Source of the DNA: Candidatus Saelkia tenebricola | GTDB taxonomy: Bacteria > Omnitrophota > Gorgyraeia > Kaelpiales > Kaelpiaceae | Length of the DNA: 64,000 bases | NCBI GenBank assembly: GCA_030765145.1 | Contig: JAVCDA010000010.1 | Location: forward strand, 119,344 to 183,343 | Reading direction: 5' to 3' | In this document: positions 2,145 through 31,148 of the stretch, piece after piece | Numbering within the stretch: position 1 is the first letter of the stretch | Layout of the letters: each line of letters starts with the position of its first letter | The notes under the pieces: model-generated | Databases searched by the model: none | Told to the model about the DNA's origin: nothing | The model's input: only the letters and a program-made list of their open reading frames with translations | Position numbers and translations under genes: made by a program

Positions 2145-5100
2145 TTACTTCATTTAATTTAGCAGGCTGGTTCATAATTATAGTTCTTATAAAAGAACTT
2201 TTGAATGCTATTTTTGACTGTTTTGAATTCTACAGAAATACTTACATTAAAAACCCAACCGGTTGGACAAAAAGAAAATTGCGCTGGTATCTTTTAATAC
2301 ACCTACCGAATGAGCTCATAGCTTCATTGGTTGTTTTCGGCTATATATTTCTGCTATTTAACCACCGGGCATCCTGGTTATTCTTAATTGCTTTTTCAGG
2401 ATATTTGTTTAAAAAAATAATACAGGACCCAATTTATATTTTACACAGCTATTGTCTAAACTTTATCTGCAGAAAAGAAGAAATTAAACCCAGGAACACT
2501 GCCCTTGCAAATATCTTCCCTAATGCTATTTACATGCCCCACTTAGGATATTCTGAATCAGAAATTGATCAAGCTCTATCAACCTTATGTCTTTCCTACC
2601 TTAATAATAAAAATTGGAATACTTCCTTAATATACCATTCCGATAACAAAAATCCCGATTTTATACTGAAAGCCCTTAGGAAATTAAAATACCTGGCGAA
2701 AAAACTTAAAATCGATAATTTTATATTCTTGCAGCGAGATATTTCATCTCATGAAAAAAACTTCCTGGGTAAACCTGGTGCTTATCTTGCAGATTATCAA
2801 CTTTTGTCTACGGGTATAACACACCCGGTAATATACATAGAAAAAGAGTGGGATGCCAGGGTACAATTTAAATGTCAACTTGATACCGACAGCAGAATAG
2901 TTGTAGAAAAACCCCACTTACCATTTCTATTGCCGGATAAAATAGAATCCGGTTTTACACATTTTATCTATTACCCACACCCTAAACCCGGGTTCTACAT
3001 CAAAGAAAGTTTAAAACTCACTACTTCAAAAGGCAGAACCTTTTTTACAGAAGTAGAAACTAAACTACACCTGATTTCTAAAATAAACCCTAAAACCAGA
3101 TTTCTCCTTCACTTAGGCGGTATTTATACTCACAACGGTGATCTTATCTTGCGCCCAGAAGAATGGACAATACAGGCAACCGGTATAATAACACACAAAA
3201 CCACCCACCCTAAACTTCCCCTAGACCCTTATCAAATTATCATCCAAAAGACTATTTGCTTAGATGGGGTCAAGTGTTTTGTAGATAAAGATTTAAATAT
3301 TCTCAATAAAGAACTTGAAATTATCATACCTCATGGTGAATTTTCCATAAAGCACCATTATCAGCTTTATCAGCGTCAGAATGATTTCCTTTATCTTGTT
3401 GAAGACAATTTTGAACCTTTAAAAGAAAAACTAATCGGTGAGGATTTTAGAAGAGACCCTTTAAACCTACTGCATAAAATACCAACTGAGGTAATGGAAG
3501 AAATAGAAACGAGTGATGATTTCAACTATTTTGAAAAAAAACAACTTCGAAAAACAGGAATTTGGGACTCAAAAAACAGTTTTAAAAATTTTAAATTCGG
3601 CTGGGAGAAAGAATTTTTAATTAAAGATACTCTTATTAAAAACAGGTGTATTTTAAAAGGAGGCTATTATTTAATAGACGCGGATAAGATCCCGCTAGAT
3701 ATCTTCCATACCCCGAATATGGAAATTAAAACAGTACTTGCACAAGATAATATCTATGGACTTGATAAAGATGAAAAAATTCCTCTTTTAACTTTAAAAG
3801 GAGATCCTGTTTTAAACATTGATGGCAAAATACTTGTTAAAGCTCCCTATGTTGAGTTTTTTAAAGAATCCGATACAGGTTTTATCGTCAACGAAAAAGA
3901 CGGTTTTCTATATCGGTTAGGCATGCTTTATTTCTGCGGAGAAAAAAACATCTATCCTGTTTCTAAAAACGTTTGGGAATTAAAAAAACACCTCATTTAT
4001 ATTGAGCCAGCCAGCAACAATTTGATAAAGAAAACACTTATTGCAAGCCCCGGCGGTTATAAGTTAAAAAACAACTCTGTCATTTTGAAGAAAAAACTCT
4101 TGTCTAATCCTTTCTCCGTTTTTATTGAAAATAGAATGTTTAAAATTAAAGACCCCTTGAGTAATAAAATTTTATCTTTAGATAATTGCACTTTGGATGA
4201 ATACGGCATCTGGCTTGATGAAAAAGAAACTGAATTATCTTTATCGGAGCATTTAAAGTTTCAAGCTCATTATATATTCCAGGAAGAGATTATTGCAAAA
4301 CATGGAGAATACACAATTAATGACAATTTCGTAGAAACAGATGGGGTAAAACATCCTCTAGGCATTAATATTTGCCACGAAAATTCTCTTTTAAAACATC
4401 AAGGCCAAACCTTAAGAGCAAGCATATCCTTTATGATTATTAATCAAGTTGATTCTGATGGTGAATTTTTAAAAGACGCCCTCTGCGAAACAAATGCTAT
4501 ATTGACAGAGCAGCTGCTTTTAGATGAATTTGAATACGGCATGATTCAACCTGAAATTTCTTTTGCCAACTCATCAGATTCGTTATTTGCAAGGCTGCTT
4601 TCCTGGGCACATGAAGAATTTAAGTTTGCAGAACGTGCATTTTTTAATACCTATAAAGAGGGTAATTCTTACGGTAAAGTTTCCAAAGCCCTTCCTTTAT
4701 ATATAGGTAATATCCTGTTTAAAGAATCTATCCCTGCAATCGCTAGGACACATGACCACTGGGAGGCAATGCATTTAAGAACCCTTTTCCAATTCTCCGG
4801 AAAACACAAAGGTGCCCGATTAATAGAAAACGTGCCTTCCAACTTTTATAGTTTCTTAAAAAGAAAGCAAGGTTGGTTAACCGGCGATGTACTACTTCTG
4901 GAGTTGGAATCAAAAACAGGCACTCTAATAAGTCTTTTGCGCAGTATAAAATCTTTTTTATCGGGAAGAACAAAAGCTGCAAGATACTGGATTCAATATG
5001 CTCAAATTCACAGAAAGATGCTTAAACAATCTAAGAAAAATTACACTGCATTAGGATTACAAAGAATTTTAACGCTTCGAAGAACTGCTCTCTCAACAAC

Positions 5101-6502
5101 ATATCTTATGCTCTGGCTCATGCTATGCGGTTGGCTGGCATTGATAATACCCGGAAGCCTAAGCATTCAAAGCAGTTTGCTCAGTTGGATTCTATTCTTA
5201 ACATCAGTATTGCTCATTATAGTACTTCCAAAATTCTTTATTCCCTTAACAAATACTATTTTAAAAGAGATAAAAACATTTAGTGGATTCTGTTTTATAG
5301 CATTCACTATATATTCAGTTATCATTACTAATGATATTATTACCCGTCACCCTCAATCTATAGTTTACTCTGCAATTTTAGGCTACAGTTATATCTTAAT
5401 CAGAAGCCTGTTTTTGCCCCTATTCTTTATTATCTTGGGCAGCAGAAGACGTCTTCGAGTAAGGCTAGGAACACTAACGTTATTACTTCTTTGCCTATTG
5501 CTGCTTTTAAACGGCTACGATATCCTGCATTATCTTTCTACAAGTAAAAAATTTTACTGGATCACTTTGCTCTTCTTGAGCCAGCTTCCTTACGTTTGGA
5601 CATATTTAATACCGATTTATGTTATTTCCAGATTCTCTCGTTTGGGCAAAAAACTATTTTCTAACTTAAAAGAAGGCGCAAAAGAACTTTTAGCAACCAC
5701 ATCAACACTTTTGATGCATTTAGTTTACGAGCCCATTCATATCATTAGAGTATTTCTAATGCTTATCAAAAAACCTTTTTCAAAAATAGCTTGGTTTCCT
5801 CAAAGCTACTTTGACAGAATAGCAGCTAACATCACTTCCCTTCCCCGTGCCTATTGTTGTTTTTACCTGCCGCCATTATTTTGTTTGATCTTTATTATCA
5901 TCCCCTTAAAGCTGCATATTTTACCTCCTCAAATCCTTTCTTTGGGCTGGCCAATATTTATCTGGTCCTGGCTTTTAGGACCATTTTGGGCATACTGGAC
6001 ATGCAGGCACAGAAAGAACCTGCATAGAATTATTCCTTCGACTCTAATTATACGCCAAGTACTAAATCAATCTCTTGTCTTTACTGATACAAACCCTACA
6101 AAATTTAATAAAATCTTAGCAGACCTGCCTTACCAAATAGATGAGGAAGAGAAAATCAGGCTATATCTTTACTTCTTTACCGAAAAAACTCGCCTTATGC
6201 TCCCTAAAAAGAACCGAAACATATTAGACCGGATTGCTAACAAAACGGCGCGCATATCTTCTGATGCCAGAGTAACTGACTGGGAAACACTATCTGAATT
6301 CTCACGCGTAAAAATAATCAAGCAATTCCGAAAATATTTAGACAAAGATTTGCTTAAACAGATAAGTTTTTACAGTGATCTTCTTTTTAACATGCTCAAG
6401 AAAGGTTGGGCAGAAGTTGAGTGGCAAAATCTTTCCGAAACAGAGCAGTCCCAAATTATAAATACTCTGAGGCAAAAACACGCATTCAATCCCGAATTTT
6501 AA
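2132..6502 (+). CDS. giant polytopic membrane protein (1456 aa), unknown function
   Basis: N-terminal 3-4 hydrophobic helices, a soluble region of about 900 aa, a C-terminal block of about 8-9 TM helices (roughly aa 1000-1300) and a soluble tail. Translationally coupled to the upstream ORF. Confidence 0.55.
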   Translation: MQILITSFNLAGWFIIIVLIKELLNAIFDCFEFYRNTYIKNPTGWTKRKLRWYLLIHLPNELIASLVVFGYIFLLFNHRASWLFLIAFSGYLFKKIIQDPIYILHSYCLNFICRKEEIKPRNTALANIFPNAIYMPHLGYSESEIDQALSTLCLSYLNNKNWNTSLIYHSDNKNPDFILKALRKLKYLAKKLKIDNFIFLQRDISSHEKNFLGKPGAYLADYQLLSTGITHPVIYIEKEWDARVQFKCQLDTDSRIVVEKPHLPFLLPDKIESGFTHFIYYPHPKPGFYIKESLKLTTSKGRTFFTEVETKLHLISKINPKTRFLLHLGGIYTHNGDLILRPEEWTIQATGIITHKTTHPKLPLDPYQIIIQKTICLDGVKCFVDKDLNILNKELEIIIPHGEFSIKHHYQLYQRQNDFLYLVEDNFEPLKEKLIGEDFRRDPLNLLHKIPTEVMEEIETSDDFNYFEKKQLRKTGIWDSKNSFKNFKFGWEKEFLIKDTLIKNRCILKGGYYLIDADKIPLDIFHTPNMEIKTVLAQDNIYGLDKDEKIPLLTLKGDPVLNIDGKILVKAPYVEFFKESDTGFIVNEKDGFLYRLGMLYFCGEKNIYPVSKNVWELKKHLIYIEPASNNLIKKTLIASPGGYKLKNNSVILKKKLLSNPFSVFIENRMFKIKDPLSNKILSLDNCTLDEYGIWLDEKETELSLSEHLKFQAHYIFQEEIIAKHGEYTINDNFVETDGVKHPLGINICHENSLLKHQGQTLRASISFMIINQVDSDGEFLKDALCETNAILTEQLLLDEFEYGMIQPEISFANSSDSLFARLLSWAHEEFKFAERAFFNTYKEGNSYGKVSKALPLYIGNILFKESIPAIARTHDHWEAMHLRTLFQFSGKHKGARLIENVPSNFYSFLKRKQGWLTGDVLLLELESKTGTLISLLRSIKSFLSGRTKAARYWIQYAQIHRKMLKQSKKNYTALGLQRILTLRRTALSTTYLMLWLMLCGWLALIIPGSLSIQSSLLSWILFLTSVLLIIVLPKFFIPLTNTILKEIKTFSGFCFIAFTIYSVIITNDIITRHPQSIVYSAILGYSYILIRSLFLPLFFIILGSRRRLRVRLGTLTLLLLCLLLLLNGYDILHYLSTSKKFYWITLLFLSQLPYVWTYLIPIYVISRFSRLGKKLFSNLKEGAKELLATTSTLLMHLVYEPIHIIRVFLMLIKKPFSKIAWFPQSYFDRIAANITSLPRAYCCFYLPPLFCLIFIIIPLKLHILPPQILSLGWPIFIWSWLLGPFWAYWTCRHRKNLHRIIPSTLIIRQVLNQSLVFTDTNPTKFNKILADLPYQIDEEEKIRLYLYFFTEKTRLMLPKKNRNILDRIANKTARISSDARVTDWETLSEFSRVKIIKQFRKYLDKDLLKQISFYSDLLFNMLKKGWAEVEWQNLSETEQSQIINTLRQKHAFNPEF

Positions 6503-7228: not shown

Positions 7229-7675
7229 CTATCTATTTTTGCTATCTAAGATTATGGTAACAGGACCGTAATTAGTAAGCGTAATATCCATATGGGTTTT
7301 AAATATACCTTGGACGACTCTTACATTTTGTGATTTCAAATATTGAAAAAATTTATCAACCATGTCCTTTGCCTTATCCGGAACCATTGCATTATCAAAA
7401 GAAGGACGTCTACCTTTTTTACAATCCGCAAAAAGCGTAAATTGAGAAACTAAAATAACCTCTCCCTTAACATCAAGAAGTGATTCATTGAGCTTCCCTT
7501 CATTGTCTTCAAAAACACGCAGATTTATTATTTTATTTCCCAGCCATATGATATCCTCATCATTATCGCCACATCCAATTCCAAGTAATATCAAAAACCC
7601 ATGGCTAATACTACAAATTATACTCTCATTAACAACAACATTTGCATTTTTTACTCTCTGCAAAACTGCTTTCAT
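7229..7675 (-). CDS. dtd: D-aminoacyl-tRNA deacylase
   Basis: 148 aa with MKAVLQRV N-terminus, SQFTL motif and NYGPVT C-terminal motif characteristic of Dtd. Confidence 0.9.
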   Translation of the reverse strand: MKAVLQRVKNANVVVNESIICSISHGFLILLGIGCGDNDEDIIWLGNKIINLRVFEDNEGKLNESLLDVKGEVILVSQFTLFADCKKGRRPSFDNAMVPDKAKDMVDKFFQYLKSQNVRVVQGIFKTHMDITLTNYGPVTIILDSKNR

Positions 7676-9174
7676 TGTAGGGAGTTTGACTCCATTTTCT
7701 TAAGACATTTTGAATAATACCCACCAGTATAAGCATCCAAAGCAGCGGTTAACTCTTCCAAATACATCATCTGCTTGATATACTCATAGCTATTTTTAGG
7801 AGTTTTGTTTAAAAGTTCATTTTTCACCCTTAATCGTTCGAAATAAAGACGGTTTACTTCATTTAAAATATCTATTCTCAATTGGGTATTAAGCCTGGCG
7901 CGTGTGTCAACATCATCTTGGTACATATTCCAAATCAAATTATCTAAATCCCAAGTTAAATCCAAACTCCAATCCCGAGGACCAATTTGAACTTTGTCAT
8001 AGCTTGCGCCTAAAGCAGTAGTCACGGTTTTATCGTATCCTAATTTAAGTTGAGGCATAAGTGCCCGATATTTCAGAGATATTCTCCAAGCCCTGATTTT
8101 TTCCGGACTCACTTCATTATAAGCCAAAGACTCTTCTTGAATCTCCTGACAACTAGGCTCATCCTTACAAAGCAATTGATACTGCCGTTCTATCAACTCT
8201 TGGGAATCCTCTCCTTCAATAAACACACCTCGCGATGTTGCGAGATAAATCTTACCTTTATTATCCATGCTGATACAATTTATCTTCCCCGTCGGCAGAC
8301 CTTCATAAATTTTCATAGCAGTACGCCTTGAGGGATAAGCTTTGAATAACCCCTCATCAGTTGCGATGTAAACAGTTTCCGGCATTGATTGAAAAATAAA
8401 ATTGATTTTTGTGTTAGGCAACCCTTGTAAATATGTTTTTATAAAACTTTTGCCTTGGTTACTCGATACAAAAAGCCCGTTATTTGTGCCCATGTAAATT
8501 TTTCTTTTATCTTTTACACCTACCTGAATAATAGAAGGGGTATTTCTGTGTTCTTCTCCCTCAGAATCTTTCTCGCCATCAACATCTATAAATACATCTT
8601 CATCCCGTGACGCTACAAAAGTACGTCGGAAATGTAGTAAATCATTACTTTCGTAAACACCCATATTAGTTGCTATGTATAGAAAAGGTTTTGAATAATC
8701 AACCCAGTAAACCTCAATTTTGCTCGACAACGTTTGGATTTTCTGAAAGTTATACACCCCCATATCTGCATGATATAATCCCTCACTTGTTCCCAAATAA
8801 ATTTTAGAGCCGATTCTCTTTACATAAAAACATTTTACATTCTGATTTCTATCTCTAAATATGTACTCGAACCTTTCTTGGTCCCTGGTAAGCAGCAACC
8901 CGGAATCTGCTGCTATAAAAAGCAGACCGTATTCTGTCGGATCAGGATATACAAAATTAATATTGCCCTCTTTTATTTTATAAATCAGCTTCCAGATGTT
9001 CGAAGCTTCTTTTTTATACAATGTATCACCTGAGGCGGCATAGATTATCTCATCATTAAAAGGATGCAACAGAAGAAAAGAAATGTCAGAATCCATTAAT
9101 CCCGAAATTTGTTCAAACTCTGCTTCTGCTGATAAAGGAAGAAACAGAATAAAAACAACCAGAATAAGCAACAT
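7672..9174 (-). CDS. secreted repeat protein, probable beta-propeller (Reg_prop/YVTN-like repeats)
   Basis: Signal peptide MLLILVVFILFLPLSAEA. Repeated (I/V)Y(L/I)(A/G)T..G(L/V)(F/Y) blocks about 45-50 aa apart. Distinct C-terminal 130 aa rich in Trp/Asp/Leu. Confidence 0.5.
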   Translation of the reverse strand: MLLILVVFILFLPLSAEAEFEQISGLMDSDISFLLLHPFNDEIIYAASGDTLYKKEASNIWKLIYKIKEGNINFVYPDPTEYGLLFIAADSGLLLTRDQERFEYIFRDRNQNVKCFYVKRIGSKIYLGTSEGLYHADMGVYNFQKIQTLSSKIEVYWVDYSKPFLYIATNMGVYESNDLLHFRRTFVASRDEDVFIDVDGEKDSEGEEHRNTPSIIQVGVKDKRKIYMGTNNGLFVSSNQGKSFIKTYLQGLPNTKINFIFQSMPETVYIATDEGLFKAYPSRRTAMKIYEGLPTGKINCISMDNKGKIYLATSRGVFIEGEDSQELIERQYQLLCKDEPSCQEIQEESLAYNEVSPEKIRAWRISLKYRALMPQLKLGYDKTVTTALGASYDKVQIGPRDWSLDLTWDLDNLIWNMYQDDVDTRARLNTQLRIDILNEVNRLYFERLRVKNELLNKTPKNSYEYIKQMMYLEELTAALDAYTGGYYSKCLKKMESNSLQ

Positions 9175-9194
9175 TAAGCACCACCTTTTTGCTC

Positions 9195-9947
9195 TTAAGA
9201 TTTGTGTACATGCTCACGATACTTCAACAAACTTAAAAACTGATAAAGGGAAGCAAAATACGCCACAACAAAACCGTAAAAACCATCTCGGAAACCTTTT
9301 TTCTTGATATAGCTTCTAAAAAATCTGTCAATACTGCGCCAAAGAAATTTACCAACCTTTATTCTCTTTCCCTGGGCAATCCATTTTTCAACCTCAAGAG
9401 TTGTTTGACGGTTTTGTTTGTTAAGAAAATCTGATATGTCTTTATAAGAATAATGAATTAAATCCGATTCTAAACGCCCTGCTTCACCATCCGTAAAAGC
9501 CACCGGATGAACGTGAGATTCCTCCCACTTAAATCGATCTTTTCTGAAAAGTTTTAACTGAGCACTGGGATACCAGCCTCCGTATTTAACCCAGTAATCA
9601 GCAATAAAATTCCTTCTGGGAATAGCAAAAGCAACTTTACTATTCGGGTTATTCAGGGTATCTGCAATCTCACTCTTCAGCTCTTCAGTTACCCTTTCGT
9701 CGGCATCAAGACTTAAGACCCAGTTATTTTTTGCCTGTTGATATGCCCAGTTCCTATGGGCTCCTTCTATGTCCATTTTCTTGACTAAAACTTTATTCGC
9801 ATAAAATGATGCAATATCACGAGTTGAATCCGCACTTTCATCGTCTACAATAATTATCTCATCTGCCCATTTATAGACGGACTGAAGACAGTCTTTAATA
9901 TTCTTCTGTTCGTTTTTAGTAAGTATTACAACTGTTAACGGTATCAT
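9195..9947 (-). CDS. family 2 glycosyltransferase (LPS-core WaaE/KdtX-like)
   Basis: N-terminal VVILTKNE...IIVDDES.D.T motif of GT-A/GT2 enzymes; about 250 aa. Confidence 0.8.
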   Translation of the reverse strand: MIPLTVVILTKNEQKNIKDCLQSVYKWADEIIIVDDESADSTRDIASFYANKVLVKKMDIEGAHRNWAYQQAKNNWVLSLDADERVTEELKSEIADTLNNPNSKVAFAIPRRNFIADYWVKYGGWYPSAQLKLFRKDRFKWEESHVHPVAFTDGEAGRLESDLIHYSYKDISDFLNKQNRQTTLEVEKWIAQGKRIKVGKFLWRSIDRFFRSYIKKKGFRDGFYGFVVAYFASLYQFLSLLKYREHVHKS

Positions 9948-10009
9948 TTTTATATTGGTTATAAGAACAACACAATCTTATCAGAAAATATTAAAATTCC
10001 AAGCAGAAA

Positions 10010-11494
10010 CTATTTTTCAATCCCTAAAATAATATCGTGATTTTTTTCTGCCTCCTGTTCTTCGCCTATAGCTATAAGACTGTCAGCCATACCTTGCAAT
10101 GCAACAGTGTTAGAGGAATCTATAAAATGAGCTTTTAAGTATTCTTCTAATGCCATTTTCGGGCGCCCCATAAACAGCAGAACACCTCCATAATTAATAT
10201 GATATTGCATCTGTACATAGTCATTCTGTGGAAAATCCTTTTTCATCTTCGTCCAAAGCATCAAATTATTCTCCCAATATTTAACCTCATATGAACTTTT
10301 GATAAAATAAAAACCTAAAGTAACCACAACTAAAACAACGACTGCTTTATATGCTTTACCATTTAAAATTACCTGTTTTAATAACATTCCTAGAAGAATT
10401 GCAAACCCCACAGAAGGGATGTAGAGATACCGCGCAGCTATTAGTGAAGGCAGATAGCGTATCGCACAAAGCGGCGCAAGATTAATCAGAATCCAGCTAT
10501 TAGCTAATTTAAGTTCAAAACTCCCTTTTAAAATACCTCTAATTGCAAGAAATAGTAATAATATTACTGTGACACAATTAAAAATCACTTCTACACCAAC
10601 TTCCCTAATAGGTGTAAATTGCTCTATTAAATAAAACTTGATTCCTGAAGGCATAAGAAGCCATTCAATATATTGGGCAAAGGTTTTTACAACCGTTAGA
10701 ATTTCACCGTAAAACCCTGCATCTAAAACCCTCTGGTTTACCGCTTCCGGCGGATTACAATAAAACCTTAGAAACCCAAATAGTACGGTAATAAAAACCA
10801 ACCCTAACATTAAAAACAAAATTTCTTTTTTGTCAGCACGAATCGTCTTACTCTTGAATGCAAGATATACATAAAGAGCAATGAGAATGAGAAAAGTTAA
10901 TGCACTCTCCTTAGAAAGAATCGCCAAAACATAAAGAACGCAGCATACCATAGATTTTATAAAAAAAATTTTTCTTTTAGATTTTAGTGCTGAAATAAAA
11001 ACAAAAAAAGCTGTTAAGTAAAAAAATAACGCCATTAAATCATGCCTGTAAGTAGCTATTACAACAGTTTCTACATTAACCGGGTGCATAAGAAATACTA
11101 AAGAAGCTACTAAACTCACTAACCGTTGAGATAGCAAAAAAAGGCAAAACCTATATATTAAAAATGTGTTCAGGATATGGAAAAGGAGATTCGTTAATTT
11201 AAAACCAGCTGGATTTAAACCCCAGAATTTATAATCAAAAAAGAAGGTAAGTGTTTTAAGTGGTCGATAGCTTATTTCACCGCTGGCATAAGAATATTTA
11301 TTAAAGCTTTCTTTAATATTGCCTGGATGCAAAAATAAAGTCTTGATATTACCTAAATCACTCAAAAATGATTCCCGTTGCGCTATTATAGACCAATCGT
11401 CACCTGCAAAATCAAACCCCAGGACCTCTCCATAAAGAGAACAGGCTATAGCAATTATTATAAGATAGGCATATAAATCGGATTTTTTAATCAA
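10010..11494 (-). CDS. GT-C fold glycosyltransferase (PMT/ArnT-like, GT39/GT83) with C-terminal TPR
   Basis: About 11 TM helices. Acidic DD motif in the first periplasmic loop after TM1 (GFDFAGDDWS). C-terminal soluble TPR-like tail. Confidence 0.65.
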   Translation of the reverse strand: MIKKSDLYAYLIIIAIACSLYGEVLGFDFAGDDWSIIAQRESFLSDLGNIKTLFLHPGNIKESFNKYSYASGEISYRPLKTLTFFFDYKFWGLNPAGFKLTNLLFHILNTFLIYRFCLFLLSQRLVSLVASLVFLMHPVNVETVVIATYRHDLMALFFYLTAFFVFISALKSKRKIFFIKSMVCCVLYVLAILSKESALTFLILIALYVYLAFKSKTIRADKKEILFLMLGLVFITVLFGFLRFYCNPPEAVNQRVLDAGFYGEILTVVKTFAQYIEWLLMPSGIKFYLIEQFTPIREVGVEVIFNCVTVILLLFLAIRGILKGSFELKLANSWILINLAPLCAIRYLPSLIAARYLYIPSVGFAILLGMLLKQVILNGKAYKAVVVLVVVTLGFYFIKSSYEVKYWENNLMLWTKMKKDFPQNDYVQMQYHINYGGVLLFMGRPKMALEEYLKAHFIDSSNTVALQGMADSLIAIGEEQEAEKNHDIILGIEK

Positions 11495-14051
11495 TCTGCT
11501 TGCAGTCTTTTGCCAGCTTTAACACCGCTAGTTCAAAACCTGATTGATAGCTATTTTTATAAATAGGGACAAAATGGAGATTGAATTTTGCTTTATCCGT
11601 ATTGTCTTTGCGATCAAAATCGTTAACAGCAATTGAAAAATTGATTTCAGCACCTGTTTGCGGTGTGACATTTAATACTGAAAATGGAATAGTTATTGCA
11701 AGCTCATATCCTTCTTTAGTCAATTTTGAAATTGATTTGACTTCTTCAATATCACGCTCCTGAAACCAGGCATATTTTATAGCTACACTATTCCTGCCCG
11801 GAGCAAATCCAAGCTGAAAATGCTCTTTATTGCCCCAGTAAAGTCTTTCACCGACTGGAGCAATGTACAGCTCAACACAATCATTTTTATAAAGAGTTTT
11901 TGCTTCTTCTTCTGCTATGACATCGTTATCGCTAACCTTTACCCAGAAGTATAAATTTTCTTCATCCCAGCTTGCTTTATATTCGCAACCCAAGTCATAA
12001 GGATATTTTGTAATCGCACCATGTTCCAAGGCCTGCTTGGGGGTTAATTTATACAATTGACCTTCGATTGATGAATCTGCGTATTGAGCAACAATAACAG
12101 GCTTTTTATCCGCCTCCAGTTTAATGGCACCATCCTTAAATCCTGCAATCTGCATAGCTTTTTTTATGTATTCGTTACGCATAAAATATTCCCAGACAAA
12201 TCCTGAAAGATAATTCTCAATCATAAGCATAATCGGGCCCTGGTCAATACCTATTACAACATCGGAATACCAGTTCTTATCTCTGTTAAAACTATCCACA
12301 AACCCGTAATTTCCCCAGATATAATCTTTGTGGTTTTGGTACATCCATCTTAAAGCACTAATACATTCAGCGGGTGCAAACGGAGTACTTCCTCCTACAG
12401 CAGTAAAAGCAACAGTACCATCATAATGCGCATAACCAGGAGGCGCCCCATAAGCACGGTAACCTGCAGGAGATTCACATGCAGTTAGTCCCCAAGAATT
12501 TTTATTAAACGTTAAAGAATTTTCCTTATTATTAATACAAAACTGCCTGTTGGCTAAAGTCGCATTGACCGATGAAGTAAAATAATCTGCGTAATCATCG
12601 TGCTTGTTTCTGAAATCAACCCAAATATGAGAAAATTGATGGGTAAACATAGGCGGCGATGATAAGCAGGTATACCCTTCATAATCCCAAATAGGCCTCC
12701 TTACATCATACCAAACTGATTCAGTTATCGGATGCGTCGGCGACCCCAAGGCCAGTAAATACATAATCAACTGTTCGCCATATTTATTCCAGCGATCAGG
12801 CAAAAACCCTGATTCAGGAGTCCACCCCATACATATATTGTCACCTTTACCCAGCATCCAATCCCACTCCACACGTTGATAAATCTCATCCGCCAATTCT
12901 TTTACTTTGCACCCGAAATATTCTCCGGCAAACAATGCCCCGGCTAAAAAAAGAGCTGTATCTATTGAAGAAAGCTCGCAATTCCAAACCCTATCTCCAT
13001 TATCCATACCCACAAAATGGTAGAAAAACCCATGCACATTTTCCATCCTGTCTCTGAAGAAGAATAAAGTATTTAAAACTCTTTCCATTGCCTCTTCCCG
13101 CCTAATCCACCCTTTCTCAACAGCTACAGGATATGCAGTTAAAGCAAAACCAACCGCTGCAATAGAAGCAACTTTAAAATTGTCTTTTTTAAAATTATTA
13201 GCTTTGTCTTTCGTTAAACCCGTCTCAGGGTTAGTTTCGCGCCAGAAATAACCGAAAGATTTTCTCTGAATTAATTCTAAAAATTCCCTATCGCTTATAG
13301 TAGATATATCGGGCTTAGGAATACATTCTCTTAAAGTCGGATAAACACCACATAAAGGCTGTTTTAAAATTTCTTCTTTGGTAAAGTATGCATCATCTAT
13401 ATAGATAGTTCCTTCCTTATCAGTAACACGCCAATCTTCAAACACAAAAATCAGTTCCTGCATCTTATCAAATTCAGATATCCCCATAAATTTATTTAAT
13501 GGAATAACATACTGTTTCCAGTCATCTTCTAAATCTGTAAGATAATGAATTCCTTTCTCGCCTTGTGTGTTTTTTAATTCCAGCTTAAAATGTTTGGTAA
13601 AACCACGTTTTTTATCCCCCTTTGCCGATAAAACTAGATATCTATAATCATTTAAGTTTTTATTCTCCAGCTTAAACCAAATACCATTAAAAGCCGGATT
13701 GGGAGAATCAACATCGTAGTCAATTCTTAAGGAATACCCTTTCTCGCCTTTTTTAACCAAAGGAGAAAATGAATCAAAACAATTCTGCGTAAAATCATCG
13801 GGGTCTTTATCCCAGGCTCCAAAACTACATCCAGAACCTTGATTTGATTTTTCGTTAAAATGTGCCAGCAAAATAATTCCCGGAAGTTCCACCTGAGGAA
13901 TAGTATCTAAATCAGCAAGAAATTCTTCTCGTGCATTCTGAACCCTGTCTTTTTCTTTTTGAACCTCCAGGTGTTTATAAAACAAGGTACTTATGATTGC
14001 TGCCAGAAAAAATAACACTAAGATTATTTTGAAAAATTTTTCTTTAAACAA
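11487..14051 (-). CDS. membrane-anchored glycoside hydrolase, glucoamylase-like (alpha/alpha)6 catalytic region, with an N-terminal CBM-like domain and a C-terminal CBM9-like domain
   Basis: TTG start with AGAGGTG SD 7 nt upstream. N-terminal TM anchor. A domain at aa about 60-225 is paralogous to ORFs 14120..14698 and 31149..31727. The central region resembles putative glucoamylase / beta-1,2-glucanase-like families. The C-terminal block (ASWDEENLYFWVKVSD...CVELYI) is typical of family 9 CBM-like domains. Confidence 0.55.
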   Translation of the reverse strand: MFKEKFFKIILVLFFLAAIISTLFYKHLEVQKEKDRVQNAREEFLADLDTIPQVELPGIILLAHFNEKSNQGSGCSFGAWDKDPDDFTQNCFDSFSPLVKKGEKGYSLRIDYDVDSPNPAFNGIWFKLENKNLNDYRYLVLSAKGDKKRGFTKHFKLELKNTQGEKGIHYLTDLEDDWKQYVIPLNKFMGISEFDKMQELIFVFEDWRVTDKEGTIYIDDAYFTKEEILKQPLCGVYPTLRECIPKPDISTISDREFLELIQRKSFGYFWRETNPETGLTKDKANNFKKDNFKVASIAAVGFALTAYPVAVEKGWIRREEAMERVLNTLFFFRDRMENVHGFFYHFVGMDNGDRVWNCELSSIDTALFLAGALFAGEYFGCKVKELADEIYQRVEWDWMLGKGDNICMGWTPESGFLPDRWNKYGEQLIMYLLALGSPTHPITESVWYDVRRPIWDYEGYTCLSSPPMFTHQFSHIWVDFRNKHDDYADYFTSSVNATLANRQFCINNKENSLTFNKNSWGLTACESPAGYRAYGAPPGYAHYDGTVAFTAVGGSTPFAPAECISALRWMYQNHKDYIWGNYGFVDSFNRDKNWYSDVVIGIDQGPIMLMIENYLSGFVWEYFMRNEYIKKAMQIAGFKDGAIKLEADKKPVIVAQYADSSIEGQLYKLTPKQALEHGAITKYPYDLGCEYKASWDEENLYFWVKVSDNDVIAEEEAKTLYKNDCVELYIAPVGERLYWGNKEHFQLGFAPGRNSVAIKYAWFQERDIEEVKSISKLTKEGYELAITIPFSVLNVTPQTGAEINFSIAVNDFDRKDNTDKAKFNLHFVPIYKNSYQSGFELAVLKLAKDCKQID

Positions 14052-14071
14052 TTGTAAACACCTCTTTACAG

Positions 14072-14099
14072 AAAGGCGGAGTTAAAATGCTCCGCCTTT
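14072..14099. other. perfect 10-bp stem hairpin (AAAGGCGGAG-loop-CTCCGCCTTT) between two co-oriented genes; no U-tract
   Basis: Inverted repeat read directly; 8-nt loop. Confidence 0.5.
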
Positions 14100-14119
14100 A
14101 AAAACATTGTTTTATAATT

Positions 14120-14698
14120 TTACTTTTCAAACTGAACATCGTCGAAATAAACAGTTCCTTCTTTAACCGGGATACGCCAGTCTTCAAAAACAACAACAAA
14201 CTCATCCATGTTGGTCAAATCGGAAATCCCAGCTATTTTAGCAAGAGAAATTTCAATTTTCTGCCATTTATCAGTAACCCCTGTAACGTAATATTTGCCA
14301 ACTTCGCCAATATTGTTTTTCAATTCAATCTTAAACAACGGGGTAAAACCTCTTTTAACATCCCCTTTTACCCAAAAAGTAAAAGTCTCATATTTTGACA
14401 CATCAGCTCCGTTCAGTTTCATCCAAAAACCGTTGTAAGCAGCATTTGGAGAATCAACATCATAATCAACCCTGAGACAAAATCCTTTACCATCTTTTGT
14501 CTCAACAGTGTTAAAACTTTCAATTGCGGTTTGTGAAAAATCCATAGGATCTCTATCCCAAGCACCAAAATCACCATTAACGTTATTGGGCTTAACACCG
14601 GAATCAAAATCTGCAATCGAAAACACATCTTCTAACGCACAAGCAGAGCCACCCGCTACTAACAAAAAACATCCGACTAACAAGCCAAACATTTTCAT
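14120..14698 (-). CDS. secreted single-domain protein, CBM-like domain paralog
   Basis: Start chosen at MKMFGLLVGCFLL, a signal peptide preceded by a GGAGGTG SD. Shares FGAWD.DP.DF, DYDVDSPN, VKGD.KRGF and VVFEDWR...KEGT.Y.DD motifs with the N-terminal domain of the hydrolase next door. Confidence 0.6.
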   Translation of the reverse strand: MKMFGLLVGCFLLVAGGSACALEDVFSIADFDSGVKPNNVNGDFGAWDRDPMDFSQTAIESFNTVETKDGKGFCLRVDYDVDSPNAAYNGFWMKLNGADVSKYETFTFWVKGDVKRGFTPLFKIELKNNIGEVGKYYVTGVTDKWQKIEISLAKIAGISDLTNMDEFVVVFEDWRIPVKEGTVYFDDVQFEK

Positions 14699-14779: not shown

Positions 14780-15985
14780 CTACACCATAGCATGCGTAAA
14801 AATATGTTGAATAACAAGGCTGACGGCACCTAAAGCAACCGCATTCTCTCCCAATTGCGTAGGAACAATGCGTACCTGATGACCGATTTCCTCAAATGTC
14901 TTGTCTCTAACAACCCTTTTGATCTCATCCAATAACACCGAACCTGCTCTTTCTATCCCACCGCCAATTACCACAACCTCGGGATTAAGCATCTGAATAA
15001 GATAGGCAATCCTAATACCCAATTCTTCCCCAGATTTTTTAACAAGTTCTATTGCAAGAGTATCTCCTTCCCTGGCTGCCTCAACTACAGATTTAAAATC
15101 TATTTTTCCCGCATCACCTCCGCAAAGTTCTAATATTTTAGAGTCAACGCCTTCTGTTATCACTGCTTTTTGTGCTTTTTCTTTCAATCCTAAATCTGCC
15201 TGCCAGCGGTCAAGGCCTTTAAAATTTTGTTTTTCCTGATCTGTTAAACCCGGCAAGCCTAACTCACCAGAACATCCTGTTGCACCGGAATAAATCTGAC
15301 CATTAATTATAATACCGCAACCGACTCCGGAGTACATAAAAACAAGGTTTTTCACTTCACTTTCAAGCTCAAACTCCCTCTCTCCAAAAGCTGCAACAGT
15401 AGCATCGTTTTCTACATACACAGGCATATTAAATTTTTGCTCTAACATATTTTTCAAGGTTGAGATGTAAATACTACCCATTTGTTCCGGCCAGCGAATA
15501 GTGCCTCCTTTTCTATCCACAATACCAGGAATACCGATACCAATACCTTTAATTTGACCTTCATCCAATTCTGATTTTTTAATAAGCTCCTCCACAATGT
15601 CTGTCAGAGCATCAATTAAAAACCCTTCCGCCCCTCCTTCTGGTCTGGGTTTTTTAATCTCCACAAGAACATTAGCCTTGAGATCCGTTATAATCCCAAT
15701 AATATTAACTAAGTCCAGCCCAACACCAACAATATAAGCAGCCTTAGGGTTAAGCTCTAAAACCACAGGACGCCTACCACCGGTAGAAACATCCAAACCG
15801 CCCTCTATTACCATACCTTTTTGAATATAATTATTTACATAATTAGAAACAGTAACGATGTTCAGCTCTGTTTCCTTTGAAATCTCAGTCCTGGTAATAG
15901 GTCCTTTTCTGCGAATTAAATCTAAAATTGAAAAATTCTTTCTCTCTCTATCCGCTAATACTTCCCCCATTGCCTCTACCATCAC
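14780..15985 (-). CDS. ROK family transcriptional regulator (N-terminal wHTH plus ROK sugar-kinase-like domain); zinc motif apparently degenerate
   Basis: HTH region ILDLIRRKGPITRTEISKETELNIVTVSNYV. Glycine-rich ROK sugar-kinase-like core. Only GCSGELG is present where CxCGxxGCxE is expected. Confidence 0.8.
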   Translation of the reverse strand: MMVEAMGEVLADRERKNFSILDLIRRKGPITRTEISKETELNIVTVSNYVNNYIQKGMVIEGGLDVSTGGRRPVVLELNPKAAYIVGVGLDLVNIIGIITDLKANVLVEIKKPRPEGGAEGFLIDALTDIVEELIKKSELDEGQIKGIGIGIPGIVDRKGGTIRWPEQMGSIYISTLKNMLEQKFNMPVYVENDATVAAFGEREFELESEVKNLVFMYSGVGCGIIINGQIYSGATGCSGELGLPGLTDQEKQNFKGLDRWQADLGLKEKAQKAVITEGVDSKILELCGGDAGKIDFKSVVEAAREGDTLAIELVKKSGEELGIRIAYLIQMLNPEVVVIGGGIERAGSVLLDEIKRVVRDKTFEEIGHQVRIVPTQLGENAVALGAVSLVIQHIFTHAMV

Positions 15986-16110: not shown

Positions 16111-17382
16111 CTAATCAGTTAAAAGCTTGTTCCCTTCTTTTGCAATCTTAATCATTATTTCATCTATTGATTTCTGGCCGTTAAACAACAAATCCAGCTT
16201 TGGTTTGATATACAGTTCTTCTATCTCCCTCCAGTTAGAATGAAACGGCGGAAAGATAACGTACTGCACTGCTTCATTGAGCATCCCTTTATTTAGCGGC
16301 TTTTCACTGCTTCCTGCCCAATAAGAACCCTGAGAAACAGATATTCTAGCCGGCTGAGCAAGTCCCATAGCAGCAATTTTCTCCATCACTTTAACAGAAG
16401 TCAAAGCCTTGACAACCTCCCAAGCAAGTTGCGGATTTTTGGCATTTTTTAGAATACAATAAGCCGTACCTCCTGTTGCAAAACGCCTGATACCTTTAGG
16501 GCTCTTAGGAAACATTACAACATCCCAATCAAGATTTTTTGTTTTTCTTAGAACTGGAGTTTCCCAGATCCCAGACCCTAACATTGCAAGCTTACCGGTA
16601 ATAAACATCATCTGAACCCCCATTCCCATATTTATTAAGGCAGACGGTGTTGGAGAAATTTTGTGTTTTAGAATCAAGTCCGTATAAAACTGGAGTCCTT
16701 CTTTAGAAGCTGTGCTATTAAGCATAATGCGCTTGGGACGCTTAATATTATCAACCAATCCACCGCCATTGGAAAGGACAAAATTTTGCCAGGCCCAAGT
16801 ATAAAATCCGTATCTTTTGATTCTTCCGCTCTCATCAACAAGCGTAAATTTCTGAGCTATTTTAAGCAGATCATCCCAGTTCCAATCATCAGTAGGATAA
16901 GGAATCCCTGCTTCGTCAAATAGTTTTTTATTATAGTAAATACAAGCAAAAGGCGCAATATCGCGCGGAATACCGTAAACGTTGTCCTTGATTGTAAAAT
17001 GATTCATTATTTCAGGGAAAAAATCATTGAATGCAAAGTCTCTATCCTGTTCAATCAATTGTGTAAGATCAAGAAAAACACCTTTGGCCCAGAAATTTGT
17101 AAATAAGCTTACCTCGGCAGCAATAACATCCGGGGCATCTCCCCCGGCAATTCTGGTTAAGATTTTACTAGTATATCCTCCGTAAGGAGTATGTTCTAAA
17201 ACCACCCTAACATCAGGATGAGAAATTTCCCATTCTTTAATTACAGAATTGATAATTTTCACTTCTTCCGGAGAACCCCAAAAAGCTAACCTAACCTTAT
17301 CAATATGCTCTTCAGTTTCCTTCCGGCCACAGCCCACAAAAAAAAGAACCCCTAAAAACAAAATAGTTTTTATAATCTTCAT
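16111..17382 (-). CDS. ABC transporter substrate-binding lipoprotein (family 1, carbohydrate type), orphan
   Basis: Lipoprotein signal LFFVGCG. Solute-binding family-1 like sequence. No adjacent permease or ATPase genes. Confidence 0.8.
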   Translation of the reverse strand: MKIIKTILFLGVLFFVGCGRKETEEHIDKVRLAFWGSPEEVKIINSVIKEWEISHPDVRVVLEHTPYGGYTSKILTRIAGGDAPDVIAAEVSLFTNFWAKGVFLDLTQLIEQDRDFAFNDFFPEIMNHFTIKDNVYGIPRDIAPFACIYYNKKLFDEAGIPYPTDDWNWDDLLKIAQKFTLVDESGRIKRYGFYTWAWQNFVLSNGGGLVDNIKRPKRIMLNSTASKEGLQFYTDLILKHKISPTPSALINMGMGVQMMFITGKLAMLGSGIWETPVLRKTKNLDWDVVMFPKSPKGIRRFATGGTAYCILKNAKNPQLAWEVVKALTSVKVMEKIAAMGLAQPARISVSQGSYWAGSSEKPLNKGMLNEAVQYVIFPPFHSNWREIEELYIKPKLDLLFNGQKSIDEIMIKIAKEGNKLLTD

Positions 17383-17448: not shown

Positions 17449-18655
17449 CTAATCAGATAACATAACTGAATCATTTTCGGCAATCTGCATCTTAGGTAAA
17501 CTAAGTAGAATACTGGCTGCAGAGGTAACCTCTCTGACATCAATGACTTGAAGCTTAGCGATCAATGTGTTGCCTCGGTATATGGAAAATCCCATACCAA
17601 TTTGCACCCCATCTCTTCTGCCAATATCGATGATTATAAAACCTTCCTCTACATTAACAAAGACAACTCTTCCTTTAAGTAGCTCGTCTTTAATTTCTAT
17701 TCTGGGTAATTCTACAGCTTCGCCTTCAGTATCGTAATTTAGTTTTTTTATCTTTTCCAATGCCATCTCAAGATCCTGTTTTAATTTTGTAACCTCTAAC
17801 ACTTCGTCTTCCAAAACTCGATTAATATATCCAATCCTTTGATTGAATATTTCTTTTTCTTTTTTCTCTTTTTCGACATTCTGTTCTAACTGTGTAATTC
17901 TTTCGCTTATTTCCTTTTTTCTGTCCTGCGCCTGTGCAACCTTCATCTGAAGCGTATTTTTATCTCTTTGCATTTCTTCCACCTGCTTTATATATGAAAA
18001 CTTCTCTTTCTTCTCCTGCTCCAAAGATGCGCTTAAGGAAGACACTATCTTTTTAGTATCCTGAAACTTATTTTCTAAATTTTCTTTTTTATCCAATAGA
18101 TCATTTACAATATTATTTAAATTTTCTTTCTCCTTCTCAAACCTTGAAATCTCGCTATCTTTTTTCTCTAAAAGTCTTTCCAAACTACTAAGCCTTAATT
18201 CTAGATTGGATTTCTCCCGCAACAAATTTGACCAGAAACTGTCATCACCTGTGTTATTGTATTTTATATTCTCTTGGCTTGTAAAACTTGCTTTGACATC
18301 ATTCTTCTCCCGTACTAATCTAGCAACACTTTCCCGTAACCGCATATTTTCATCAGCCAGCTCCTTGAAGTTGTTTTCAGAAATAAGTTTTTCCTCCTCC
18401 ACTTTCGACAGATGTGTTTGATACTTATTAAGATTGGCCTGTATTTTTTCAATCTCTGACTTAAACTTGTCGAGATCAAACTCCAAGTCTCTATTTGTTT
18501 GATACCAAAGCACTTTTTCTTCTGTGTATCTGGAATAAATTTTTCTATTCTCTAACCCAAGCCAAACGGCAGAAATAACAGACACGCTTAAGAGCGTACC
18601 GCATAAAGAATAAATTACTGTTTTTACTGAGTCCGACATTTTCATATTGTTCTTG
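17449..18655 (-). CDS. membrane-anchored coiled-coil protein with a C-terminal small beta-rich module; last gene of the RND efflux operon
   Basis: Start taken at MKMSDSV, giving a 14-nt overlap with the upstream RND gene; the ORF-track start at 18792 lies inside that gene. One N-terminal TM helix, then about 280 aa of heptad-rich Glu/Lys sequence. The C-terminal GRVVFVNVEEGFIIIDIGRRDGVQIGMGFSIYRG block resembles the C-terminus of the OMF. Confidence 0.6.
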
Positions 18656-21600
18656 GTTTTGATATCCGCAAAATTTTTGTTACAACATATCGTACGTCTT
18701 CCATTATTATATACACACAGGGAATAACTAAAAGGGTTAAAATTGTTGAAACGCTCATCCCTCCAATAACAGTCTTTGCCAAAGGCGACCATAAATTGGC
18801 AGATTCGCTCCTGTCCACCGCCATGGGGATTAAACTACAAATTGTAGTTAACGATGTCATAAATATCGGTCTTATCCTGCTTTCGGCTCCTAAGAGCACT
18901 GCTTTCCTTAATTCCATCCCTTCTATTCTTAAAAGATTTATGTGATCCACCATAACTATAGCGTTATTAACAACAATACCTCCCAGCATTAACATGCCCA
19001 TCAACGCACCAATATTAATCGATGTACCAGTATAGTAGAGCGTAGGGATTACACCTATCGCCGCCAAGGGAACTGTAGTCATGATGATAAGGGGCTGAAT
19101 ATATGATTCGAAGAGAGACGCTAAAACCAAGAAAATCAGAATTAAAGCTACCCAAACTGCAAAGTTCAATTGCTTGTTATTCTCTTCCATCAATTCATAA
19201 TCTCCGCTAAAGCGATGTGAGTAATCATCCGGCATTTTAAAATCGCGAAGCGCTTCTTTGGATATTTCAATTGCCTTATCTAAAGAAAGAGCACCCCTAT
19301 TAGCGCTAACCTGAACCATTCTGGATTTATTCTTATGCCAAATCTCGCTAGGCGCAATATCAAATTTAAGATCTGCGATTTGCTTGAGAGGAACCTGAAT
19401 TCCGTTGCTGTTTACAAAAGTAAGGTTCTTTAAGTCTTTAAAACTATCTCGGCTTTCTTCTTCCATCCTCACCACTATCTCTACCTCTTTAGTCTTTGTA
19501 TGAAAAAAGGAGGCCCGCAAACCTCTTATTTTTCCATGCAACTGGTAGGAGATATCCTGGATAGTCAGCCCGTAAGTGCTTGCCTTATCTTGATCTATCA
19601 AAACACGAATCTCAGGCCTACCTTCTCTCATCCTTATCTTCTGATCCGTAATGCCTTCAACCGTACTTAATTTCTGCGCTATGCCCATGGCTATCTGCTT
19701 TAAAACATCATAATCATAACCATTTATATCTATAAAAATCTCGCTACTACCTACCTCCTGAGGCAATTCAAAATAAATAAAAGCGTCAAACTGTTTTGCT
19801 ATCTCATCCATCTTAGGGCGTAATTCCGTTATAATATCATCCGTCATCCGATACCTTTGAGAGAGAGGTTTTAGTTTTACATATACTTTCGAAGACCATC
19901 TTTCTATGCGAGAAGAAACAGTTTTAATCTCAGGAACTTCTCTCAAAATGCGCTCTACCATCGCAACAGCCTTATCAGACATCTCAAGGCGAGCACCCGT
20001 AGGCAATTCTACATGAGCGGTAAACTTGTTAAGTTCGGTAATGCCAATAAATTCCTTCCCTATTTGATTCCATAATGGCAACACAATTAAAAACACCGCT
20101 ACCATAAAAAACAAAAACTGATACCTTAATCGTAAAAAGCCACCCAATAGTTTTCTGTAAAATCTTCTGCTTTTTCTCACCTTGTCTTTACGCTTATTGA
20201 TAAATGGAATACCTCGACCAAGCTCCACCATAGATGAGGCTAAAGGCACCAGCGTTAACGCAACAAATAAAGATGCCAGCAAAGAATATACTACAGTCCA
20301 AGCCAAACCGCTATAAAGAATACGCATCTGTTTGCCTACAAACATAATTGGTAAAAATGCAACTACAGATGTAATGGTAGAAGCAACAATTGCAAGACTA
20401 ACTTCCTGCGCTCCATTTAAAGCTGCTAAACGCTTGTTAGCACCTGCCTCCTTTTTTTTAAAAATATTTTCTAATACAACGATTGAAGAATCCACCAACA
20501 TTCCTATCCCAAGTGCAAGCCCTGAGAGAGTCATAATATTTAAAGTCAAACCCTGCATAAACATTATTGTAAACGTTGCCATAACAGAAATTGGAATCGA
20601 AAGTGCAATAATAAAAGTCGGCGGCATATCGTGTAAAAATAACAGCAACACTATTACTGCCAGTGCACTGCCAAACATCAGAGATTTTCGCACAGTATCT
20701 ATGGCTTCTTGAACATACTCCGCCTGCTGGAAAGTAGGCCTGATGATCACGTCTTGAGGGATGATTTTTCTTATTTCCTCAAGTTCTTTGACTATCAACT
20801 TATTAACTTTGATAGTATTAGCCGTGGATTCTTTTTGAATATAAATGGAGACTACCGGACGAGCATCTACCCTTGATAAATCCATCGGGTCCAAAAATGA
20901 ATCCTTTATCTGAGCTACATCTTGAAGGCGTATCACAGAGCCCTGGGGTGTGAAACCCACTCCGATTCCTTTGATATCTTCTATTGTATTGAACTGCCCT
21001 AACAGCCTTATTAAGTACTCAATGCGTTTGCTTTCCAAATCACCGACTAAAATATCCAAATTGTTAGCTCCGACCATATCAATTAACTGCCCCAAAGATA
21101 TGTTGTAGGCTCTTAATGTTGATTCTTCTGTTTCTACTAAAATCTTTCGCTCTCTACCACCTGCAACCTCAATATTTGCTACCCCCTCCAGTCTTTGAAA
21201 CCTTGACTTAACTTTTTCGTCAACAATTCTGCGTAACATCTCCGGAGTATATTTTTCTCCGGTCACAGCAAGTATAACAATCGGAACATCAGTCTGCTGA
21301 TACCGAGCAATAACGGGCTTTTCAATTTCTTTGGGTAATTTATCTTTGACCCTGCCAAATTTTTCTCTCACCTCCAAAGAAGCAAAATCCATATTGGTCC
21401 CCGGCTCAAACTTTAAAATTACCCGCGATTCACCCTCTTCGGATATTGCAATCAATTCTTTCAGATTACTAACATCGCTCACCGCTTCTTCAACCGGCTT
21501 TGTGACCAAGCGTTCAACATCCGGAGATGGTATCCCACCTCTAATCCGTATAATAATACTAATGGTGTCATAGCTGTAATTGGGCATCAACTCTACTGGT

Positions 21601-21695: not shown

Positions 21696-21698
21696 AAA

Positions 21699-25145: not shown

Positions 25146-25173
25146 TTTTATTTTCCGCGGTTAATTAGCAGTA

Positions 25174-31136: not shown

Positions 31137-31148
31137 ATAAAAATCAAG

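Follow-up and report, generated by a model that had tools for sequence, protein, structure and literature searches.

A CBM11-like module encoded beside, and fused to, a GH144 enzyme in Candidatus Saelkia tenebricola: a possible accessory of β-1,2-glucan utilisation

A 64,000-nt stretch of the genome of Candidatus Saelkia tenebricola (Omnitrophota), positions 119,344 to 183,343 of contig JAVCDA010000010.1 (hereafter, the window), codes for three copies of a domain related to carbohydrate-binding module (CBM) family 11. Copy A is part of an 854-aa hydrolase that we assign to glycoside hydrolase family 144 (GH144), a family of endo-β-1,2-glucanases; copy B is a stand-alone protein encoded next to the hydrolase; copy C is a second stand-alone protein encoded 17 kb away. 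We lean towards the view that A and B are accessory components of a β-1,2-glucan utilisation locus found in Omnitrophota and that C is a diverged paralogue belonging to another gene set. A and B probably bind β-1,2-glucan themselves.

When each copy was used as a tblastn query, these three copies, and no more, were found in the window (nothing else scored below an E-value of ca. 2). The triplication is genuine and well in excess of what chance would produce. Copies A (13377-13886, hydrolase residues ~56-225), B (14120-14698) and C (31149-31727) are all encoded on the minus strand, and the domain measures about 165-170 aa, not the ca. 150 aa given in an earlier note on this DNA. In BLASTP comparisons, A is 48% identical to B over 172 residues (E 1e-49), which places the domain at the N-terminus of the hydrolase, as that note had proposed. 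Copy C aligns over the whole domain with A (29% identity, E 1e-16) and with B (26% identity, E 2e-17), and hhalign comparison of the C-family profile (13 proteins) with the B-family profile (48 proteins) gave a probability of 99.8% (E 7.5e-30). By these alignments, the third copy can be taken as a true, though distant, homologue of A and B. Copy C has a 100% identical counterpart in a Candidatus Saelkia tenebricola MAG. The four motif blocks that were said to mark all three copies hold for A and B: FGAWDKDP, DYDVDSPN, KGDKKRGF and VFEDWR..KEGT are all kept in A. Copy C has diverged at every block. Its equivalent segments read GVWEEFMEDR, DYDFRSDN, VKGEPAVGY and VFIDKRYIDQTGGRTYFDN, and six residues are deleted in the first block, opposite KPNN..GD of B. 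It is improbable that A and B recently underwent gene conversion, since their identity is only 48% and A is equally similar to B-type proteins of other genomes.

Both stand-alone copies are 192 aa long and consist of a signal peptide followed by a single domain. The gene of B starts at ATG 14698, with the ribosome-binding site GGAGGTG 7-8 nt upstream, and its product has a Sec-type signal peptide (residues 1-21, cleavage between …GGSACA and LEDV) ahead of the domain (residues 23-192), so that the adjacent secreted copy is confirmed. An extended, 214-aa version of B starting at TTG 14764, which was suggested by the open reading frame (ORF) finder, was rejected because of this strong ribosome-binding site and because homologues start at ATG 14698. 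An alternative in which B is a lipoprotein (LVGC at Cys10) was also rejected, since the hydrophobic run extends beyond Cys10 to the AXA site.

With the Pfam CBM_11 profile (PF03425), copy B scored 32.4 bits (E 1.2e-7), above the gathering score of 27. For copy A, the sole Pfam match was CIA30 at 16.8 bits, under the cut-off of 24, with no match to CBM_11, and copy C had no relevant match in Pfam. No NCBIfam match was found for the hydrolase, B or C, and phmmer search with B alone against PDB sequences retrieved nothing meaningful. A and C thus lie under the CBM_11 threshold, and both are tied to B through direct homology instead. The PF03425 match is precomputed for most of the 120 best listed relatives of B, and several relatives are named “carbohydrate binding domain-containing protein” at NCBI. 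An AlphaFold model of B built from a 48-sequence alignment (predicted local distance difference test, pLDDT, 88.5) is an 11-strand β-sandwich. A Foldseek search of the PDB with this model returned four structures of CtCBM11, the module of C. thermocellum Lic26A-Cel5E, as the top matches (best E 2e-9, TM 0.65/0.72), followed by CIA30/NDUFAF1 and other β-sandwich CBMs. The model is thus predicted to be a β-jelly-roll whose closest structure is CtCBM11. We conclude that the domain is a distant, CBM11-like β-jelly-roll member of a well-described CBM superfamily, the galactose-binding-domain-like superfamily, which is also home to CBM30 and CIA30. Its description as an uncharacterised, perhaps unclassified family has to be dropped, as B maps to a well-described CBM family both by the Pfam score and by the best structural match.

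Over 48 B-type proteins, 30 residues are invariant, including W47, Y79, Y88, W92, W145 and many acidic or basic ones. Y88/G90/W92 and K123/E125/K127 alternate on two predicted strands of B; from this periodicity, we read the residues of each trio as pointing to the same side of their sheet and forming one conserved face, as in a binding cleft. Another possibility is that A and B bind β-1,4 glucan, mixed-linkage β-1,3-1,4 glucan or some other glycan in the usual manner of CBM11, and not β-1,2-glucan itself; they would then direct the enzyme to a composite material, e.g., a cell wall or a biofilm matrix. CBMs aimed at a neighbouring polymer are well known, and CtCBM11 binds β-1,4 glucans. Among the cleft tyrosines of CtCBM11, which we take to be Tyr22, Tyr53 and Tyr129, only Tyr53 aligns, to invariant Y88, in a low-confidence hidden Markov model alignment (E 0.02, residues 34-130). 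CtCBM11 has, in addition, been crystallised with a β-1,3-1,4 mixed-linkage tetrasaccharide (title of 6r31). We nevertheless regard this possibility as quite unlikely. The sequences are only distantly similar to CtCBM11, the aligned stretch offers no equivalent for most of the invariant residues of the subfamily, and the recurring partners of B-type genes, described below, are GH144 and GH94 genes (the four other gene types searched for in the flanks did not include cellulases or lichenases).

The hydrolase (11487-14051, minus strand) matched Pfam PF10091, “Putative glucoamylase”, with an E-value of 3.2e-70. Among solved structures, XcSGL (8xul) was the closest (E 3e-83), and CpSGL (5gzh) was matched at E 5e-52; after XcSGL, the structure list continued with uncharacterised “putative glucoamylase” chains and CpSGL (5gzh/5gzk). 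These matches delimit a GH144 (α/α)6 catalytic domain at residues ~251-652 (12096-13301). The SGL clan's defining residues are said to be E239, F286 and Y367 for XcSGL and E211, F268 and Y330 for CpSGL (PMC12102758). Those of XcSGL align to E426 (in YGEQ), F469 (PMFTHQ) and Y543 (AHY) of the hydrolase. XcSGL (XCC2207) is active on β-1,2-glucan, with no activity detected on the other substrates tested (PMC12102758). CpSGL is the founding endo-β-1,2-glucanase of GH144. The “glucoamylase-like” label used earlier for the enzyme turns out to be no more than a Pfam nickname, PF10091 being GH144 by the matches to XcSGL and CpSGL.

The catalytic domain is followed by a CBM9-like module at the C-terminus (residues ~677-826, 11574-12023), which matched CBM9_1 (PF06452) with 56.4 bits (E 4.7e-15) against a cut-off of 23.4; here the earlier note was right. 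The reading frame starts at TTG 14051, with an AGAGGTG ribosome-binding site 7 nt upstream and no in-frame ATG ahead of the domain. The N-terminus forms a single hydrophobic helix, KIILVLFFLAAIISTLF (13977-14051), with no obvious cleavage site, and this segment is the sole confident helix in a single-sequence AlphaFold model of the whole hydrolase (pLDDT 33). It is a probable uncleaved membrane anchor, which would leave the domains of the enzyme outside the cytoplasm.

The association of the module with GH144 is not limited to the window. Copy B has 431 homologue clusters, the best 120 of which are 167-265 aa long, most being about 190 aa. All matches listed for B that carry the name of a source organism come from Omnitrophota, and, judged by the available names, the A/B subfamily is largely confined to this phylum. 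Contig look-ups of six B homologues returned eight loci (L001-L008). In each of the eight, a B-type gene is found beside a GH144 gene, a GH94 gene or both, together with genes for an ABC-transporter solute-binding protein (SBP), a ROK-family protein or ABC permeases. The B-type gene directly adjoins GH144 in L001-L004, L007 and L008, whereas its neighbours in L005 and L006 are GH94, SBP or permease genes; L006 and L007 also code for a ROK regulator. There are two stand-alone copies in L003 and three in L008.

When GTDB was scanned with a single genome for each species, 239 relatives were retrieved, and we examined 79 loci, mostly from Omnitrophota, with flanks of up to 8 kb on each side. GH144 genes were found in 28 of the 79, GH94 genes in 26, and at least one of the two in 50; SBP genes were present in 31 and ROK genes in 15, and more than one copy of the domain was present in 23. 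The GH144 gene lies directly downstream of the B-type gene in 19 loci. Loci L012-L017 have the exact gene order of the window, i.e., SBP, ROK, B and a GH144 gene with the A module in front and the CBM9-like module behind; the latter module also follows GH144 in L069. Since GH144 genes are rare, we reason that random placement would make the two genes neighbours far less often. GH94 genes, with or without permeases, adjoin the B-type gene in L005-L008, L032, L033, L037, L040 and others. Among solved structures, the GH94 partner is most similar to the corresponding domain of cyclic β-1,2-glucan synthase (E 2e-165) and less so to cellobiose phosphorylase, which points to β-1,2-glucan.

In L003, L008, L018, L021, L029, L055, L064 and L068, two to four separate copies surround one GH144 gene, and some proteins of the multi-copy loci are lipoproteins with a linker of ~40 residues, e.g., a 298-aa protein in L008. 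Comparison of these loci indicates that the module has expanded locally in some Omnitrophota.

With a profile covering the three types, an exhaustive HMMER search retrieved 2188 clusters at E ≤ 0.001, of which 299 reached E ≤ 1e-30; among them are proteins with the domain alone, in tandem arrays of up to seven copies or combined with other domains. Of 33 listed domain-bearing proteins longer than 450 aa, seven contain a GH144 domain, with the module N-terminal in some and C-terminal in others. Fusion to GH144, at one end or the other, thus occurs in other lineages too. That it arose independently in both orientations is our best reason to think that module and enzyme act together. The other fusion partners are PKD, β-helix, F5/8-C and cohesin/dockerin domains, along with a few unrelated ones (a kinase with TPR repeats; HEAT repeats). 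In the large proteins, Pfam labels the module as CBM_11, CBM30 or CIA30. The N-terminal domains of the Omnitrophota GH144 enzymes in L001, L003, L007 and L008 are homologous as well (E 1e-5 to 1e-13). Such N-terminal domains, the usual ones in Omnitrophota GH144 enzymes, form a third, diverged subtype lacking the B-type motifs; in the lineage of the window, a B-type module occupies this position.

The surroundings of copy C are different. Its partners (18642-31136, minus strand), as identified by Pfam and by conserved order, are 543-aa and 249-aa proteins with no match in Pfam, a 748-aa OEP protein, an MFP protein and two AcrB-type RND pumps. In L009-L011 (46-72% identity), the order is always gyrB-gyrA-glmS-rsmI-C followed by a ~530-aa protein and a ~245-aa protein, homologues of the 543-aa and 249-aa proteins, and by OEP-MFP-RND. 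The 543-aa and 249-aa proteins (28787-31136) are 39-70% identical across L009-L011 and always come after C. No glycan enzyme was found near C in any locus examined, i.e., in the window and in L009-L011. C-type proteins are few (13 homologue clusters), and every one of them has Cys17 where its signal peptide ends; relatives have LSC, SGC or CGC boxes, and copy C reads FLFC, a non-canonical lipobox. This pattern suggests that C-type proteins are lipoproteins. Being part of a separate conserved gene set devoid of glycan enzymes, C should not be regarded as a spare copy serving the hydrolase, and it probably has another envelope role than A and B. Its inclusion in the same glycan-capture story, as proposed earlier, is not upheld: C is lipoprotein-like, lacks the B-type conserved residues and lies between rsmI and the OEP-MFP-RND set.

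Two proteins of this cluster have unusual features. One AcrB-family RND pump (21699-25145, 1148 aa) carries a C-terminal extension that matches the DeoR-like helix-turn-helix PF08220 (residues 1089-1133, E 2e-4). The same match is recorded for RND homologues in L009-L011 (it is weak in L009 and L011), and it is peculiar for an RND pump to bear a motif of DNA-binding type. The outer-membrane factor (26421-28667) is 748 aa long, with the best OEP match at residues 196-377, one of two matched stretches, and homologues of 747-755 aa are kept in L009-L011. TolC-type proteins are far shorter, at ~450-500 aa.

Stand-alone modules are found at both ends of the OEP-MFP-RND-RND cluster (17449-31727), with C at its head and B downstream. 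One can therefore propose that the stand-alone modules are CIA30-like envelope factors, acting in protein-protein interactions or assembly and tied to a tripartite RND/outer-membrane system, and that the link to GH144 is inherited gene order. In all the loci seen, C stands at the head of the OEP-MFP-RND cluster. A B-type gene comes directly after MFP-RND-RND in six loci (L059, L075, L079, L083, L085 and L088) and after an RND gene in two shorter contigs, L063 and L078. In the window, L012 and L015-L017, B lies downstream of the same two RND genes, which sit just upstream of SBP-ROK-B. The sole Pfam match of A, below the cut-off, is to CIA30. Still, we consider this explanation unlikely. GH144 fusions that arose independently at either terminus are hard to square with inherited gene order, the other partners (CBM30, PKD, β-helix, cohesin/dockerin) are typical of glycan-related surface proteins, and B passes the CBM_11 threshold and not that of CIA30. 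In addition, the housekeeping order gyrB-gyrA-glmS-rsmI is also conserved beside C, showing that gene order can persist in this clade without a functional link. The linkage of the module to RND genes may thus reflect either function or inherited gene order.

Several observations weigh against a role of A and B in β-1,2-glucan utilisation. The known ligands of CBM11 are β-1,4 and β-1,3-1,4 glucans, not β-1,2-glucan, and the relation to this family is remote: B is 18-22% identical to CtCBM11, which the family profile reaches only at E 0.02. In 29 of the 79 B-type loci, neither GH144 nor GH94 is nearby (many of these contigs are short), and in a coherent, diverged Omnitrophota sub-branch of such loci, the B-type gene instead comes after MFP-RND-RND and a 200-aa membrane protein. 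The third subtype lacks the B-type residues, so the conserved residues of B must be dispensable for some Omnitrophota GH144 enzymes. The 64,000 nt of the window contain no GH94, ABC permease or β-glucosidase gene, and the SBP of the window is nearer to Lmo0181 than to Lin1841, a binder of sophoro-oligosaccharides, to which its similarity is weak (E 1e-8).

The SBP gene (16111-17382, minus strand) codes for a sugar ABC-transporter component (SBP_bac_1, E 1e-40; closest solved relative Lmo0181, E 3e-40). It is followed by the gene of a ROK-family regulator with an N-terminal winged helix (14780-15985, minus strand; Pfam ROK E 3e-43, HTH_24), which is located directly upstream of B. Between the stop codon of B and the ribosome-binding site of the hydrolase, there is a GC-rich hairpin (14072-14099, minus strand) with a stem of 10 bp, AAAGGCGGAG-8 nt-CTCCGCCTTT. 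Its folding energy is -17.8 kcal/mol (z -3.9), a value that none of 200 shuffled sequences equalled, and no long T-run follows it. The hairpin may act as a partial terminator, a read-through attenuator or a stabiliser of the B transcript; speculatively, it could let B be made in excess over the hydrolase.

If A and B serve β-1,2-glucan utilisation, the locus could work as follows. B would be exported through its Sec signal peptide as a small soluble protein and, either in the periplasm or extracellularly, would probably bind β-1,2-glucan or sophoro-oligosaccharides. The GH144 enzyme, anchored in the membrane, would hold the same polymer through module A and the CBM9-like module and cut it into oligosaccharides, which would be taken up with the help of the neighbouring SBP and, in related genomes, would be phosphorolysed by a cytoplasmic GH94 enzyme. 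The ROK protein would regulate the locus. Copy C would be an old, diverged lipoprotein paralogue that lost the residues conserved in A and B. The earlier suggestion that stand-alone binding modules aid the enzyme is supported for B, whose adjacency to GH144 is conserved and whose module is recurrently fused to it, and does not extend to C, with its separate context.

The gene order also allows for B modulating the enzyme, either as a decoy or competitor that limits the action of GH144 on the cell's own periplasmic glucans or as a sensor component acting on the ROK regulator. Given its homology to the N-terminal module of the enzyme, B could vie with that module for a shared ligand; its gene is placed between those of the regulator and the enzyme, and the hairpin could set different expression levels for the two proteins. 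We hold such a role to be very improbable: B has no signalling domain, ROK regulators are cytoplasmic proteins that detect small sugars by themselves, and the presence of two to four stand-alone copies in many loci fits capture better than regulation.

Several other features of the window were recorded. Downstream of the hydrolase (7672-11494), there is a gene that overlaps the hydrolase stop by 8 nt and codes for a multi-pass membrane protein of 494 aa, which ends in a TPR-like tail and has no Pfam match above threshold; a 250-aa GT2 protein and a 500-aa protein with a propeller-like repeat are encoded beyond it. A membrane protein of the 494-aa type is also encoded 3′ of the GH144 gene in L012, and in L001, GT2 and β-propeller proteins are encoded near GH144. 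The genes at 7672-11494 could be a periplasmic glycosylation set. A probable chromosomal replication origin lies at 41975-45570: dnaA (41975-43324, minus strand), dnaN, gyrB and gyrA extend leftward from it and yidC (44092-45570, plus strand) and parA rightward, and gene orientation and GC skew both flip at ~42-44 kb, at the cumulative skew minimum. Two large consecutive ORFs of 710 and 1456 aa (12-6502, plus strand) had no Pfam match at E ≤ 0.001.

The fold and the family of the module are already known, and its relatives are already labelled as carbohydrate-binding in databases. What is new, and in our opinion moderately interesting, is a testable hypothesis of specificity that ties CBM11-like modules to GH144. 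In the literature, we found no description of a CBM or non-catalytic module that binds β-1,2-glucan and no link between CBM11-like modules and GH144. One can go further and suppose that the B-type subfamily is the first CBM family specific for β-1,2-glucan, part of a harvesting system for this polymer conserved across Omnitrophota; from the sequences, we put this forward as a tentative idea that may well prove wrong. β-1,2-Glucan is best known as a periplasmic or cyclic glucan of Gram-negative bacteria, and β-1,2-glucans are factors of symbiosis, virulence and osmoregulation. The classification of enzymes acting on them into families is a recent achievement (GH144, GH162, GH186, GH189 and GH192-194; PMC12102758, PMC11842490). 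Most Omnitrophota have been proposed to be predators or parasites (PMC10066038); the main text of the main paper on the phylum makes no mention of glucans or glycoside hydrolases. If the idea is correct, β-1,2-glucans of hosts or prey would be a regular food source for Omnitrophota, and the placement of modules beside OEP-MFP-RND could even mean a physical link with an envelope-spanning machine. Binding by B would provide a probe or affinity tag for β-1,2-glucans and a defined nutritional trait for an uncultured phylum of debated lifestyle. Should B not bind, the locus would present a routine duplication of a CBM11-like module.

Compared with known systems, the domain most resembles CtCBM11 (1v0a, 6r31; PF03425), with which it shares a β-jelly-roll of ~170 aa appended to a glucan-active enzyme. 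It differs in that the B subfamily has invariant motifs of its own (FGAWDKDP, DYDVDSPN.AYNG and VFEDW..KKEG), consists mostly of stand-alone secreted proteins and is partnered by GH144 rather than by GH5/GH26. The GH144 enzyme BDI_3064 of Parabacteroides distasonis (5z06) also has an extra N-terminal domain, a β-sandwich; its identity in this region is 13%, with no match at the sequence level. CIA30/NDUFAF1 (PF08547) is a mitochondrial protein-binding assembly factor of complex I; A is below its cut-off, and B scores with CBM_11.

As in the sgl clusters of Chitinophaga, Listeria and relatives, a GH144 glucanase and a sugar ABC-transporter SBP are encoded together in the window, and related Omnitrophota loci add a GH94 phosphorylase and ABC permeases. 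Components of such kinds are listed for sgl clusters in the review PMC11842490; in the passages searched, the sole sugar-binding component mentioned is the binding subunit of the ABC transporter. The window departs from these clusters in lacking GH94, permease and β-glucosidase genes and in the weak similarity of its SBP to Lin1841. Surface glycan-binding proteins of the polysaccharide utilisation loci of Bacteroidota provide another parallel. The B-type proteins are unlike them in having no SusC/SusD pair, in consisting of a single small domain and in having, for the most part, ordinary signal peptides, so that they are probably soluble. They resemble them as candidate non-catalytic binders, some of them lipoproteins, as surface glycan-binding proteins often are, encoded beside a glycanase and a transporter.

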